Assembly: GCA_005893165.1 (NCBI GenBank)
Contig: VBOR01000030.1
Location: 354-64,353 of the forward strand
Source of the DNA: Candidatus Eiseniibacteriota bacterium
GTDB taxonomy: Bacteria; Eisenbacteria; RBG-16-71-46; SZUA-252
Length of the DNA: 64,000 bases
Direction: 5' to 3'
A program made the position numbers and the translations under genes. Shown in pieces: positions 55,206-59,381 of this stretch (the stretch's first letter is position 1; every line of letters starts with the position of its first letter). The notes under the pieces were generated by a model. That model did not search any database. It had not been told where the DNA came from and saw nothing but the letters and a program-made list of their open reading frames with translations.

Positions 55206-56585
55206 GTGCGGGTGACCTTCTGGGGCGCCGCGCGGACCGTCACCGGATCGAAACATCTGCTCACGGGCCGGTCGGGGACGATGCTCCTCGATTGCGGTCT
55301 CTTTCAAGGGAGGCGGGCCGAGTCGGAAGCGCGGAACCGTTCCCTTCCGTTCGACGCAGCCTCGGTGGATTGCATGGTTCTATCGCACGCCCACATCGAT
55401 CATTCGGGAGCGATCCCGTTTCTCTGCAAACAGGGATTCCGGGGTCCCATCCACGCCACGGCCGCGACCGCGGACCTCTGCCGCGCCATGCTCCTGGACG
55501 CCGCCCACATCCAGGTCAAGGACGCCGAGTTCCTGAACCGGCACCACCGCGGCAAGGCTCCGGTCCTCCCGCTCTACACCCCCGAGGACGCCGAGCGCTC
55601 CCTGGATCGCTTCGTGGAGCACGCCTACGAGGAGCCCTTCGAGCCGCTCGAGCGAACGCGCGTGGTGCTCCATGAAGCGGGGCACATCCCGGGCTCGGCT
55701 TCGCTGGAGATCCAGTGGAAGGAGAACGGTCACGCGGGGTCGCTCGTCTTCTCGGGGGATCTGGGACGGCCGGACCGGCCCATCCTGAAAGACCCGGCTC
55801 CTCTGCCGAAGGCGGATTATCTCGTCACGGAGGGGACCTACGGCGGCAAGAAGCACCCCGACGAGATCTCGCTTTACGAGGCGCTCGAGCGGGTCGTGCA
55901 CCGGGCGATCGAGCGCGGGGGGAGGATCGTGATCCCCGCCTTCGCCGTGGGAAGAACTCAGGAGGTCGTGCACGCGCTCGACCGGCTGTTCGTGGAAGGT
56001 CGAATTCCAGAATTACCGATCTACGTGGACAGCCCGCTCGCGGCGGAGATCCTGGTCGCCGTGGGGCGTCACCCCGAGGTCTTCGACGAGGAGACCATGG
56101 AGGCGATCCGCCACGGCGAGGATCCCCTGGGGATGCGCCGCATCACGCTCGTGCGCGACGCGGAGGATTCCAAGAAGCTGAATGAGAAGCCGGGCACCTT
56201 CATCACGATCGCCGCGTCGGGAATGTGCGAGGCCGGAAGGATCCTGCACCACCTGAAACACACCGTGTCCGATCCGCGCCACACCATCGTCATCGTCGGC
56301 TATCAGGCCGAAGGGACCCTGGGCCGCCGCCTCGTCGAGCGCCAGCCCGAGGTGCGCATCTTCGGAGAGCCCTATGCGCTCCAGGCCACGGTCGAGGTTC
56401 TGAACGGATTCAGCGCACACGCGGATCACGAGGCGCTCGTGGCTCAGGTGAAATCGTGCGGCGCGCCGAAGGGCTGCGCCGTGGTCCACGCGGATCTGGA
56501 GCGCGCCGAGGCCCTGCGCGCCGCGCTCGTTCCCTCGATCCCGACGCGCATTCCCTCCGAGGGGGACGTGTGGGAGCTCCGATGA
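55206..56585 (+). CDS. beta-CASP family metallo-beta-lactamase nuclease (RNase J / CPSF73 / Artemis-like fold)
   Basis: GTG start. SHAHIDHSG (HxHxDH), the downstream His/Asp metal ligands, the beta-CASP insertion and the C-terminal RMMBL-like block GFSAHAD are present. Confidence 0.85.
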   Translation: MRVTFWGAARTVTGSKHLLTGRSGTMLLDCGLFQGRRAESEARNRSLPFDAASVDCMVLSHAHIDHSGAIPFLCKQGFRGPIHATAATADLCRAMLLDAAHIQVKDAEFLNRHHRGKAPVLPLYTPEDAERSLDRFVEHAYEEPFEPLERTRVVLHEAGHIPGSASLEIQWKENGHAGSLVFSGDLGRPDRPILKDPAPLPKADYLVTEGTYGGKKHPDEISLYEALERVVHRAIERGGRIVIPAFAVGRTQEVVHALDRLFVEGRIPELPIYVDSPLAAEILVAVGRHPEVFDEETMEAIRHGEDPLGMRRITLVRDAEDSKKLNEKPGTFITIAASGMCEAGRILHHLKHTVSDPRHTIVIVGYQAEGTLGRRLVERQPEVRIFGEPYALQATVEVLNGFSAHADHEALVAQVKSCGAPKGCAVVHADLERAEALRAALVPSIPTRIPSEGDVWELR

Positions 56586-58594
56586 TCCGCTCCATGAGCC
56601 GGGCGCCCCGCGCGGGATTCCGGGTAGGGGACCGCGTGCATCACCGCGAGTTCGGCGAAGGGCTCATCGTCGAGGTCCGGGAGCGGGACGGCTTCGAGGT
56701 GCTGGAGATCGCCTTCCCGGACGGGATCCGGAGGCTCACGTCGCTCTATCCGCTGGAGACGGCGCGAGGGCAGGGGCGCGCGCGTCCGGGAGCGGGCTCC
56801 CAGACCGCTGCGACGGCATCCGCCACGGAGGCGGCGCCGCTCTCGGGCGGGCTCGCGGTTCCGGCGCGGACCCAGTTCCGAGTCGCGGGAGGATCCGAGG
56901 ACCTCTTCCAGACACTCCGGACCGGACCCTACGACGATCCGCGCGACTTCGATCTGCGGCTACGCATCGAGCGCTTCGCGCTCCACCGGGGCTTCGACCG
57001 GCTCCTCTCCCTGGATCTCCTCCACGACGTGCAGAAATACGACCACCAGAGTCAGGCCTGCATGAACGTGCTGCGGCGGCTCCGCGGGCGCGCGCTCCTC
57101 GCGGACGAGGTGGGTCTGGGGAAGACGATCGAAGCCGGAATCATCCTCAAGGAGTACCTCCTGCGCGGGCTCGTGCAGCGCGCGCTCATTCTCGTGCCCG
57201 CGTCGCTCGTCGAGCAGTGGGATCAGGAGCTCCGCCGGAAGTTCGACCTCGAGTTCGCAGTCTTAAAGCACGGGACCGCCTGGTGGGAGGAGCCGCTCCT
57301 CCTCGCCTCGATGGACACGGCCAAGCTCCTTCGCCACCGGGACAAGGTGGCGGCGGCGTCCTTCGACCTCGTCGTCGTGGACGAGGCGCACCGGCTCAAG
57401 AACCAGAAGACGCTCGCCTGGAAGTTCCTGGACCGGCTCGCGCCCCGCTACATCCTGCTCCTGACCGCGACACCCGTGCAGAACGATCTCCACGAGCTCT
57501 ACAACCTGGTCCAGCTCCTGCGGCCGGGCCTTCTCGGAACGTACCGGACGTTCGGGAGGGAGTTCATGCGCCGCGGCGACAAGCGCATGCCGCAGAACAC
57601 GGGCCGGCTCGCGGCGCTCCTCTCGGAGACGATGATCCGCACGACGCGCGCCAGCACGTCGATCCGGTTCCCGAAGCGCGAGGTGACGAACGTGATGTTC
57701 GATCTCTCCGACGCGGAGCGGGAGCTCTACGACAACGTGACCAAGTTCGTGAGGCGGGTGCTCCACGCACACCGCGAGCCGCGCCGCGGCGCGATCAAGC
57801 TCACCCTGCTCACGCTGCAGAAGGAGATGGGCTCGAGCACCTTCGCGGCCATCCCGACCCTGAGCAAGCTCATGGCGCGGGAGGGCCCGGGGCTCGAGCG
57901 CTCGGAGATGGAGGCGCTCCTCCGGCAGGCTCGCTCGATCGAGTCGAACGCCAAGATGGAGGGGACCGCGAAGCTCCTCTCGGGCTCGCGGGAGAAATTC
58001 GTGATCTTCACCCAGTTCCGCGCCACGCTGGAATTCCTGGCCCGCTCCCTCCGGAACCTCGGCATGAAGGTGGCGGTGTTCCACGGAGCGCTCTCGCTGC
58101 GGGAGAAAGAGGCGGCCATCGAGCAATTCCGGGATCGCGCGCGGGTTCTGGTGAGCACCGAGGCGGGCGGGGAGGGCCGGAATCTCCAGTTCTGCCACTA
58201 CCTCGTGAACTACGACCTGCCCTGGAACCCGATGCGGATCGAGCAGCGGATCGGCCGCCTCCATCGCCTGGGACAAACTCAGGACGTGCGGGTCTACAAC
58301 TTCACGGCCCGGAACACCGTCGAGGCCTACGTGCTCCAGATCGTGCACGAGAAGATCAACATGTTCCGGACGGTGATCGGGGACCTGGACATGGTTCTGG
58401 GACCGTACGCCGAGGCCGGGACCTTCGAGGACGAGGTCTTCCGGATCTGGGCCGCGGCCAAAGGGGAGCGCGATCTGGAGCGCGAGTTCGGGAAGCTGGG
58501 CACGGCGCTCCTGGTGGGACGGAAGCGGTACGAAGCCGTGGAGGAGCTGGACCGGAAGCTCCTGGACGAGGTGGATCAGAATGGGTCGGCGTAG
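56582..58594 (+). CDS. SNF2-family ATPase/translocase with N-terminal UvrD/PcrA-type Tudor-like domain
   Basis: The ATG overlaps the upstream stop (ATGA). The N-terminal GDRVHHREFGEGLIVEV...LEIAFPDGIRRLTSLYPLE matches the UvrD/PcrA C-terminal domain consensus. GLGKT (Walker A), VVDEAHRLKN (DEAH), the helicase C domain and QRIGRLHRLGQ (motif VI) are present. Confidence 0.85.
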   Translation: MIRSMSRAPRAGFRVGDRVHHREFGEGLIVEVRERDGFEVLEIAFPDGIRRLTSLYPLETARGQGRARPGAGSQTAATASATEAAPLSGGLAVPARTQFRVAGGSEDLFQTLRTGPYDDPRDFDLRLRIERFALHRGFDRLLSLDLLHDVQKYDHQSQACMNVLRRLRGRALLADEVGLGKTIEAGIILKEYLLRGLVQRALILVPASLVEQWDQELRRKFDLEFAVLKHGTAWWEEPLLLASMDTAKLLRHRDKVAAASFDLVVVDEAHRLKNQKTLAWKFLDRLAPRYILLLTATPVQNDLHELYNLVQLLRPGLLGTYRTFGREFMRRGDKRMPQNTGRLAALLSETMIRTTRASTSIRFPKREVTNVMFDLSDAERELYDNVTKFVRRVLHAHREPRRGAIKLTLLTLQKEMGSSTFAAIPTLSKLMAREGPGLERSEMEALLRQARSIESNAKMEGTAKLLSGSREKFVIFTQFRATLEFLARSLRNLGMKVAVFHGALSLREKEAAIEQFRDRARVLVSTEAGGEGRNLQFCHYLVNYDLPWNPMRIEQRIGRLHRLGQTQDVRVYNFTARNTVEAYVLQIVHEKINMFRTVIGDLDMVLGPYAEAGTFEDEVFRIWAAAKGERDLEREFGKLGTALLVGRKRYEAVEELDRKLLDEVDQNGSA

Positions 58595-59381
58595 ATCGGA
58601 CCGCCGGCGGGCGGAGCTGCCCGAGATCCTGGCCTCGGTGCTGGAGTACCGCGGGGCCACGGTCTCGCGCAACGGAATGATCTGGGAAGCGGATCTGACG
58701 CCCGAGCTGACCACGTCGCTGGGCGTGAACCGGGTCCGTCTGGTCGCGGCTCCGGCGGGACGCGCGGCACGCGGGGCCGAGATGGATGCGGCCATGACGG
58801 AGCGAATTCTCCTCCTGGGCCGCTCGCACGGGCAGGTCGCGATGCTCGTCGCTCCGGTGTCCCCCTCGAGGGAGGCTTCCGCGGTCCCTCGGATCTGGGC
58901 CCGTCTCCACTGGCGCATCCGGTACGGGAGCGACGAGATCCCCGAGGAGCTCCTGGTCCAGGAGCTTCCGGTGGGGAGCGTGGGCGGAATGCGCCTGCCG
59001 CGAGAGTCGCTGTTCCGGGCCGCGACGCCCGAGGAGATCGAGCGGCTGCCGCGTCCCGCCCAGGACGCTCTGGGAGCGACCTGGACCCGGGCGCTCCGGC
59101 TCCTCGAGGGACGCGCGCGGCGAAAGCTCCGGCCTCACGAGGACCGCGCGCGCCGTGAGCTCCACCGGGAGATGCGCACGCTCAGCAGCCACTACCGCTC
59201 GCTCATCGCGGAGGAGCGGGCGGGGCGCGCCCGGCGCCCGGAGGACCGGGAAGCGGGGCGCATGCTGCAGCTCAAGGAGGACTGGGAGCGGAAGCTGGTT
59301 CAGGTGATCCGCCAGCGCGCCTTCGAAACGGAGGCGACGCTCGTGGCCGCGGCGCTCCTCTACGGAGTTCCGGAAGACTGA
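58581..59381 (+). CDS. hypothetical Arg-rich protein, probable partner of the SNF2 ATPase
   Basis: 266-aa ORF overlapping the SNF2 gene by 14 nt. The C-terminal half is predicted coiled-coil and R/E-rich. No recognisable family. Confidence 0.55.
   Translation: MGRRRSDRRRAELPEILASVLEYRGATVSRNGMIWEADLTPELTTSLGVNRVRLVAAPAGRAARGAEMDAAMTERILLLGRSHGQVAMLVAPVSPSREASAVPRIWARLHWRIRYGSDEIPEELLVQELPVGSVGGMRLPRESLFRAATPEEIERLPRPAQDALGATWTRALRLLEGRARRKLRPHEDRARRELHREMRTLSSHYRSLIAEERAGRARRPEDREAGRMLQLKEDWERKLVQVIRQRAFETEATLVAAALLYGVPED

Follow-up and report, generated by a model that had tools for sequence, protein, structure and literature searches.

Genes for a predicted CPSF73-like ribonuclease, a Tudor-SNF2 ATPase and a putative YqhG-superfamily partner overlap in Eisenbacteria

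The DNA considered here is a stretch of 64,000 nucleotides (nt) from Candidatus Eiseniibacteriota (contig VBOR01000030.1 of assembly GCA_005893165.1), referred to below as the window. It is core chromosome with a GC content of 68%, and it carries three consecutive + strand genes whose stops and starts overlap: a beta-CASP ribonuclease (RNase) gene, a gene for an SNF2 ATPase with an N-terminal Tudor domain, and a gene for a smaller Arg-rich protein. The coordinates and overlaps are exactly those of the original prediction, which a model had made from the letters of the window. The GC content at third codon positions in genes 1 to 3 is 85-88%, as expected of real genes at 68% GC, and a Shine-Dalgarno-like GGGAG lies 5 nt 5′ of the ATGA overlap between genes 1 and 2. 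The genes and their parts are as follows.

55206..56585, + strand: gene 1, 459 amino acids (aa), GTG start, predicted TTHA0252-type beta-CASP ribonuclease; NCBI call TMQ50676.1
56582..56585, + strand: ATGA overlap of the gene 1 stop and the gene 2 start (ATG 56582-56584, TGA 56583-56585)
56582..58594, + strand: gene 2, 670 aa, SNF2 ATPase of the YqhH/HepA type; NCBI call TMQ50677.1
56612..56752, + strand: Tudor domain of gene 2, approximately aa 11-57, PF21196
56753..57034, + strand: linker from the Tudor domain to the ATPase core of gene 2; first part rich in Ala, Gly, Pro and Ser, length and sequence varying in the alignment
57035..58369, + strand: SNF2 ATPase core of gene 2, aa 152-596, with GLGKT, DEAH and QRIGRLHRLGQ
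58581..58594, + strand: 14-nt overlap of the gene 2 stop (TAG 58592-58594) and the gene 3 start (ATG at 58581)
58581..59381, + strand: gene 3, 266 aa, putative short-form YqhG-superfamily partner; NCBI call TMQ50678.1

Searches of all three proteins with hidden Markov models (HMMs), as initially suggested, recover the domains that had been named for genes 1 and 2. In gene 2, Pfam detects both lobes of the motor, as SNF2-rel_dom (9.8e-39, 133.6 bits) and Helicase_C (3.9e-24, 85.4 bits), and these lobes, together with motifs I, II and VI, place the protein in the SNF2 family. The top match of the core in the PDB is RapA (8e-45), in keeping with the resemblance that had been noted. RapA, also named HepA in E. 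coli, is an SNF2 ATPase that recycles RNA polymerase (RNAP), and it likewise consists of an N-terminal Tudor-type RNAP-binding module followed by an SNF2 motor. Gene 2 differs in having a single UvrD-type Tudor domain in place of RapA's own N-terminal domain, and in lacking the C-terminal region of about 350 aa, instead of which there is a separate YqhG-type partner. Tudor folds are also attributed to RapA in a work cited in PMC3797733.

The protein falls below every equivalog cut-off of NCBIfam. It is not a RapA equivalog, as PRK04914 reaches 228.5 bits against a cut-off of 576 and aligns only with core residues 112-598. Its top SNF2 matches in PADLOC and NCBIfam are DrmD, BrxH, ZorD and DpdE; an identity as a DISARM, BREX, Zorya or Dpd helicase was nevertheless rejected, with scores far below the cut-offs (DrmD 281 against 950 bits, ZorD 97 against 1500, DpdE 210 against 500) and the partner genes absent.

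Upstream of the core, and connected to it by a linker that probably behaves as a flexible tether, is a domain matching PcrA_UvrD_tudor (PF21196) over residues 15-53, with 32.7 bits against a cut-off of 23.9. A profile built from 10 Eisenbacterial N-termini retrieves the C-terminal domain of UvrD from the PDB (7egs and 6yi2, 2e-8), as well as PcrA (5dma, 3e-4). The proposed homology to the UvrD/PcrA Tudor domain is therefore clear, but the claim of near identity to UvrD was overstated, the figure for the E. coli protein being 38% over 48 residues. The settings of the homologous domains differ, in that it resides at the C terminus of a superfamily 1 helicase in UvrD and PcrA and at the N terminus of a superfamily 2 SNF2 motor in gene 2. 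A basic residue aligned to the lysine of the PcrA GIK segment is retained in Eisenbacteria as GIR, GVR or QLR; we take this lysine to be K727, an assignment of our own made without a numbered alignment. RpoB and UvrB both have a TGE-tipped beta-hairpin to which the PcrA Tudor domain binds, the conserved lysine K727 is critical for RNAP binding, and UvrB competes with RNAP for the PcrA/UvrD Tudor domain (PMC8318588). The proteins of the window were searched for the PcrA helicase interaction motif and none contains it; the window also lacks rpoB and uvrB.

The SNF2-YqhG pair

Gene 3 has no direct match in Pfam, NCBIfam, PADLOC or PHROGs, and to that extent the initial statement that it belongs to no recognizable family holds; a superfamily does emerge, however, once intermediate sequences are considered. 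The 172 relatives of gene 3, which have a mean column identity of 69%, all come from Eisenbacteria-like sources. Gene 3 is predicted to consist of an N-terminal alpha/beta domain followed by a long Arg-rich helical hairpin; AlphaFold2 models have predicted local-distance difference test scores (pLDDT) of 61-64. Against 1.8 billion cluster representatives, the profile of these short forms yields only 27 matches, and long forms of 340-415 aa appear at E = 3e-7 to 1e-3. The long forms have in common with gene 3 the N-terminal domain and the YYRQLIAEE and LQLDWKRR helices, and possess in addition a C-terminal CxxC...CxxC zinc ribbon that gene 3 lacks. In more distant Eisenbacterial genomes, the long form is the syntenic gene 3′ of the SNF2 gene, and in two unrelated contexts (L005 and L007; the loci compared are labelled L001 onward) it overlaps the end of an SNF2 gene without a Tudor domain.

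When short and long forms are combined, the family aligns with YqhG of Bacillales in hhalign with a probability of 98.4% (E = 9e-15, 245 columns). The Eisenbacterial short-form profile alone does not reach significance against Bacillales YqhG, which explains why the annotation is missing on gene 3, and the gene 3 of the window has diverged too far to be matched directly by the Pfam YqhG model. The corresponding partner of the SNF2 protein in Bacillus haynesii, by comparison, matches PF11079 (YqhG) at 3e-127. As judged from this chain of profile comparisons, gene 3 is probably a shortened and divergent member of the YqhG superfamily (PF11079). Sequence and profile searches of the PDB with the gene 3 family and with YqhG return no match, and no link to the C-terminal domain of RapA.

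A different size variant occurs in Actinobacteria and Gemmatimonadales, where the open reading frames (ORFs) detected with the YqhG HMM are 630-750 aa long (L080 7556-9457, L083 7560-9713, L074 8124-10367). The extra part of the L080 ORF, the one that was run, has no Pfam domain.

The breadth of the pairing was assessed by a scan with an SNF2 alignment, taking one genome per species, which gave at least 80 loci at 37-50% identity (a sample and not a census) from Bacillales, Paenibacillus, cyanobacteria, Planctomycetota, Chloroflexi, Desulfobacterota, Actinobacteria, Alphaproteobacteria, Gemmatimonadota, Nitrospirota and others. Partners were detected by applying the gene 3-family HMM and a Bacillales YqhG HMM to the ORFs 3′ of the SNF2 gene. 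Among the matches listed, a YqhG-family ORF lies directly 3′ of the SNF2 gene in 76 of 80 genomes; most junctions are overlaps, -4 nt being the commonest. Beyond synteny at the level of lineages, no additional conserved gene accompanies the pair from phylum to phylum in these matches. Given this distribution, SNF2 plus YqhG is apparently an ancient two-gene module of many bacterial phyla.

With the SNF2 genes found ahead of YqhG-family members in Bacillales, cyanobacteria, Planctomycetota, Chloroflexi and other groups, gene 2 shares 38-48% identity. It conforms to the YqhH/HepA type, in that its core is orthologous to the SNF2 proteins encoded ahead of yqhG and a YqhG-family gene is situated directly downstream. 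From the relationship of gene 3 to YqhG and the shared gene order, genes 2 and 3 are therefore probably the Eisenbacterial version of Bacillus yqhH(hepA)-yqhG. The Bacillus genes encode the same SNF2 subfamily (core identity 38-45%), with yqhG directly 3′ and usually overlapping, but their proteins have no Tudor domain and no RNase gene adjoins them.

The yqhH(hepA)-yqhG pair, although conserved from Bacillus to cyanobacteria, Planctomycetota, Chloroflexi, Actinobacteria and Proteobacteria, has no established function. YqhH of B. subtilis, synonymous with HepA, is a poorly characterized Swi2/Snf2 protein with about 30% identity to E. coli HepA/RapA, and has been grouped with RNAP-interacting translocases (PMC7385302). 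In B. thuringiensis, deletion of yqhH confers sensitivity to ultraviolet (UV) light, and the purified protein hydrolyzes ATP (PMC10054049). Transposon mutants of yqhG were obtained in B. subtilis from a screen for extracellular DNA release that also produced mfd and topA mutants (PMC3487849).

The Tudor domain is what distinguishes the Eisenbacterial version of the pair. Its HMM matches all 13 of the Eisenbacterial SNF2 copies sampled and none of approximately 75 from other phyla among the matches listed, and the domain is by this distribution a gain of the SNF2-YqhG pair within Eisenbacteria. In Desulfobacterota, Proteobacteria and other metagenome-assembled genomes, the position is occupied instead by Lys/Glu-rich N-terminal extensions of 130-290 aa with weak tetratricopeptide repeat (TPR) signals (L007 550-2949, L016, L033, L038, L072). 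This replacement of the Tudor domain by TPR-like extensions suggests that the N terminus of YqhH-type SNF2 proteins could be a swappable targeting module. Two loci display further peculiarities. In L005 (5075-8011), two ORFs (5690-7168 and 7196-8011) together represent a split SNF2 gene, which follows a HEPN gene and a 79-aa ORF, and in L007 a 77-aa ORF (220-453) that by eye resembles a ribbon-helix-helix protein lies 5′ of the SNF2 gene. These upstream genes may be toxin-antitoxin-like neighbors.

The ribonuclease and its linkage

Gene 1 contains complete metallo-beta-lactamase (MBL) motifs and complete beta-CASP motifs A, B and C, which place it in the beta-CASP family, and Pfam detects Beta-Casp (2.7e-35, 121.9 bits against a cut-off of 27.7), RMMBL (27.6 bits against 21.6) and, above its cut-off, Lactamase_B. 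The best match in the PDB is Thermus thermophilus TTHA0252, which aligns end to end (9e-86), has the same domain order and size, and shares all of the catalytic motifs: HAHIDH, GHIPGSA, SGDLG, EGTYG (A), HHLKH (B) and GFSAHAD (C). It is followed in the ranking by aCPSF1, Cas14, FttA, CPSF73 and IntS11. The residue in motif C (GFSAHAD) is a histidine, which Callebaut and colleagues, writing in 2002, reportedly recognized as the mark of the RNA-acting beta-CASP branch. Because of this histidine, the RMMBL domain and RNase relatives that match end to end, gene 1 can be assigned to that branch, and it is predicted to be a bacterial CPSF73-like RNase of the TTHA0252 type. Where an RNA-processing and a DNA-repair nuclease had both been entertained, the evidence thus leans toward RNA and away from the SNM1/Artemis type. 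TTHA0252 itself is a non-essential 5′-3′ exoribonuclease, probably an endonuclease as well, that alters global mRNA levels (PMC4229858). Genes of this type normally stand alone, whereas gene 1 overlaps the SNF2 gene.

Three related families were tried as identities for gene 1 and rejected. A housekeeping RNase J ortholog, which the original prediction had raised as a reason to regard the gene as merely adjacent, does not fit, since the RNase J models of NCBIfam reach only about 20 bits (TIGR00649 20.9 against 400, RnjA 18.8 against 820). The aCPSF1/FttA model gives 263 bits against 580, with a match spanning model positions 175-611 only; as this match begins at position 175 and the protein starts at the MBL domain, gene 1 has no KH domains. 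Type VII Cas14 is the top NCBIfam match but remains below cut-off (367.8 bits against 800, 435 of 612 model positions), and there are no cas genes among the neighbors examined. Separately, gene 1 matches PHROG 36352, of unknown function, at 1.4e-97, and close beta-CASP homologs are accordingly present in some phages.

In the window and in L001, L010, L011, L089, L120, L157, L159 and L162, an RNase gene directly precedes the SNF2 gene. In a simple neighbor-joining tree of SNF2 cores, the window and L001 make up clade A, with the RNase; L002, L003 and L044 make up clade B, without it; and clade C combines L010, L011, L159 and L162, which have the RNase, with L009, which does not. The stop of the RNase gene and the start of the SNF2 gene overlap as ATGA in clade A and as a GTGA-type sequence in clade C (GTGA-type loci: L010, L011, L120, L159, L162), and the gene 5′ of the RNase is that of an outer-membrane beta-barrel protein (OMP) in clade A and xerD in clade C. 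Between the two clades, the RNases are 46% and the SNF2 proteins 47% identical. The linked RNases also share private residues, for example R191, which is absent in 75 of 75 unlinked relatives among the matches listed. The similar divergence of the two proteins between clades and the private residues point to a single old linkage event with later losses, rather than repeated recruitment. The original view of a three-gene unit consequently needs qualification: the coupling is operon-like, and SNF2 and YqhG genes do stay together in relatives, but the trio as such is not conserved, as the RNase is linked only in Eisenbacterial clades A and C.

A scan of metagenomes for relatives of the RNase produced at least 63 loci at 45-52% identity with at least 600 nt of downstream sequence, again a sample and not a census. 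An SNF2 gene is found 3′ of the RNase in four of the 63 among the matches listed, and all four have an Eisenbacteria-like GC content above 70%. No conserved neighbor of the RNase family was found in these matches, the best case being an RNase D gene upstream in 5 of 80 loci. This RNase D, with a 3′-5′ exonuclease and an HRDC domain, is encoded about 7 nt 5′ of the TTHA0252-type gene in L113 (3828-4988) and in four other metagenomic loci, and the two may form a two-RNase operon in another lineage. A lineage-specific gene also occurs in clade B, where a signal-peptide protein of 524-534 aa with no Pfam match is encoded between the YqhG-like and TPR genes (L002 11182-12786, L003 11021-12595); it has no counterpart in the window.

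Interpretation of the locus

What is novel in this locus is the Tudor fusion and the coupling to an RNase, both on an otherwise known, if uncharacterized, yqhH-yqhG pair. Since Tudor domains of this type are known to bind RNAP and UvrB, and the basic residue is kept, the most economical model is that of an SNF2-YqhG translocase tethered to RNAP or UvrB and acting on stalled transcription complexes, with a co-expressed RNase that degrades the transcript. This model is tentative, with a probability that we put at roughly 0.45. In it, the Tudor domain would dock the pair on the TGE beta-hairpin of the RNAP beta subunit and of UvrB, and the pair, as a double-stranded DNA translocase, would remodel or remove stalled RNAP in the manner of RapA and Mfd. 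The co-translated RNase would cut the nascent transcript and degrade it in the 5′-3′ direction, either helping to dislodge the polymerase torpedo-style or clearing RNA or an R-loop left at damaged sites. We infer both the tethering to RNAP and the joint function with the nuclease from the composition and arrangement of the genes.

Roles of this kind are familiar among beta-CASP RNases, as RNase J1 in Bacillus and FttA in archaea act as RNAP torpedoes (PMC8501993). RNase J1, FttA/aCPSF1 and the combination of CPSF73/IntS11 with the SNF2-like TTF2 can all be seen, conceptually, as pairing a 5′-3′ exo- or endonuclease of the same superfamily, acting on RNA, with an RNAP-removing motor. The comparison is one of analogy only, and gene 1 differs from RNase J1 in not being an RNase J and from FttA in having no KH domains.

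It could also be that the three proteins constitute one physical machine, an RNAP eviction complex in which the Tudor domain parks SNF2-YqhG on the polymerase, or hands it over from UvrB, while the RNase cleaves and chases the transcript; such a stable assembly seems rather improbable. Were it to exist, it would correspond in bacteria to the eukaryotic route involving TTF2 with CPSF73/Xrn2 and to the archaeal FttA route, and the yqhH-yqhG pair would by extension be a previously unrecognized RNAP-clearing factor in many phyla. The broader model has implications of its own. If it is correct, the link between beta-CASP enzymes and RNAP removal would extend to a second bacterial RNase family. The Eisenbacterial version offers two Rosetta-stone clues in this respect, namely a fused domain of an RNAP- and UvrB-binding type and a co-translated transcript RNase. 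Together with the UV sensitivity in B. thuringiensis and the screen that yielded yqhG and mfd mutants, these clues lead to the hypothesis that the pair removes stalled transcription complexes at lesions.

Several observations weigh against a tethered translocase working with the RNase. Inactivation of hepA/yqhH in B. subtilis fails to suppress the lethality of PcrA depletion, whereas inactivation of mfd does suppress it (PMC7385302). The RNase is absent 5′ of the SNF2 gene in L002, L003, L044 and L009, even though Tudor-SNF2 and partner are kept there, and it adjoins the SNF2 gene in none of the approximately 75 loci outside the phylum among the matches listed. Conversely, 59 of the 63 metagenomic RNase relatives in the matches listed do not adjoin an SNF2 gene and have varied neighbors, and no linkage-specific domain or indel suited to docking is present in the linked RNases. 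Finally, the whole block from uvrC to the GH57 gene is syntenic across Eisenbacteria, plainly unrelated envelope genes included, and the adjacency of the RNase could for this reason be merely inherited.

Apart from the first, these observations are those that would be expected if the RNase were a bystander, that is, a general enzyme of mRNA decay or processing that happens to share an operon with a pair that works alone, as it does in other phyla. The absence of the RNase from clade B, from L009 and from the listed loci outside the phylum, the variable surroundings of its unlinked relatives (five of them, among the matches listed, with RNase D directly upstream) and the lack of linkage-specific insertions all agree with such a role. 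On the other hand, the overlapping adjacency has been kept in clades whose proteins are only 46-47% identical, despite a different gene 5′ of the RNase, and co-translation of an RNase with a translocase bearing an RNAP-type Tudor domain fits a known theme (PMC8501993). An incidental RNase is regarded as unlikely, though as the main competitor.

Less probable still is a primary function in excision repair, which is best treated as a variant of the tethered-translocase model. The Tudor domain would here recruit SNF2-YqhG to UvrB, so that the motor clears post-incision complexes or proteins at lesions in co-regulation with uvrC and ogt, the RNase being secondary. It is compatible with the binding of UvrB by the PcrA/UvrD Tudor domain through the same motif as in RNAP, with UvrB competing (PMC8318588), and with the UV-sensitive phenotype of the B. 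thuringiensis yqhH deletion (PMC10054049). In the window, as in every Eisenbacterial locus with the upstream flank read (L001-L004, L011, L159), uvrC is also encoded upstream on the same strand, a position that speaks for the main model as well, and so is ogt in most; the flank of L044 starts at ogt, and that of L162 was read to xerD only. Yet the repair genes and the SNF2 gene have xerD and the OMP gene between them, and outside Eisenbacteria the pair does not adjoin uvr genes in the matches listed. Moreover, the ATPase core is closest to RapA, a partner of RNAP, and an RNA-specific nuclease has no obvious part in excision repair.

Gene 1 might instead act on DNA, as a nuclease of the kind of SNM1/Artemis or of the ligase-associated exonucleases, and work together with the SNF2 motor to repair crosslinks or breaks. 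Repair genes do occur in the flanks and a weak ligase-associated exonuclease match exists, but its 47.6 bits are far below the NCBIfam cut-off of 325, the motif C histidine and RMMBL are present, and the best end-to-end relatives (TTHA0252, aCPSF1/FttA, CPSF73 and IntS11) all act on RNA, which makes a DNA substrate very improbable. An anti-phage module of an SNF2 helicase and a nuclease effector, resembling DISARM, BREX or Zorya, is the least credible alternative of all, although a defence role was among those first proposed: DrmD, BrxH, ZorD and DpdE head the PADLOC/NCBIfam SNF2 ranking and Cas14 that of the RNase in NCBIfam, but these generic NCBIfam scores are far under their cut-offs (DrmD 281 against 950, Cas14 368 against 800), PADLOC gives no match for gene 1 or gene 3, no methylase, phospholipase D-type, CRISPR or other defence partner is nearby, the core-chromosome position is constant throughout Eisenbacteria, and vertical conservation of the pair extends over many phyla.

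Flanking genes and the rest of the window

Two further features border the three genes.

54482-55201: OMP gene, between xerD and gene 1
59419..59448, + strand: putative sigma-70-like promoter, TTGACA-18 nt-TAGACT, a consensus match only, in the 97-nt gap after gene 3

The order upstream of gene 1 is dapA, dapB, proS, uvrC, ogt, xerD and the OMP gene, and gene 1 starts 4 nt past the stop of the last of these. The candidate promoter likely marks the downstream edge of the transcription unit of genes 1 to 3. Beyond it are a membrane-anchored TPR protein and then a GH57 enzyme. The description of the surroundings as a DNA-repair neighborhood is therefore only partly apt: uvrC, ogt and xerD are indeed upstream, but the OMP gene intervenes between xerD and gene 1, and the TPR and GH57 genes follow downstream. 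The possibility that the TPR gene is a split-off version of the TPR-like N terminus of proteobacterial SNF2 homologs was rejected, as its product is membrane-anchored and YfgM-like and the gene has its own promoter-like site.

The uvrC of the window (51203-52956) is apparently frameshifted. One frame encodes the N-terminal two-fifths (GIY-YIG, UVR) and ends at about 52078, and a second encodes the C-terminal part with the RNase H-like and helix-hairpin-helix regions from about 52090, leaving some 50 residues of the L001 uvrC ortholog with no counterpart in the alignment. The break may stem from faulty assembly, mark a pseudogene or be a genuine frameshift. A second tyrosine recombinase of the XerC/D type, 36% identical to the xerD product of the locus, is encoded at 44376-45296, just past topA (41909-44395).

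No tRNA genes or Rfam matches were found in the window. Additional nucleic-acid enzymes are encoded within 15164-17200 and 25082-27595, namely an RNB exoribonuclease of the RNase II/R type and a ComEC with an MBL domain. A CspA-like cold-shock gene lies at about 9245-9445 (+ strand), and a 646-aa multi-pass membrane protein is encoded at 9550-11490 (− strand), in a stretch of lower GC content where the AT skew changes sign in the window-wide composition profile.

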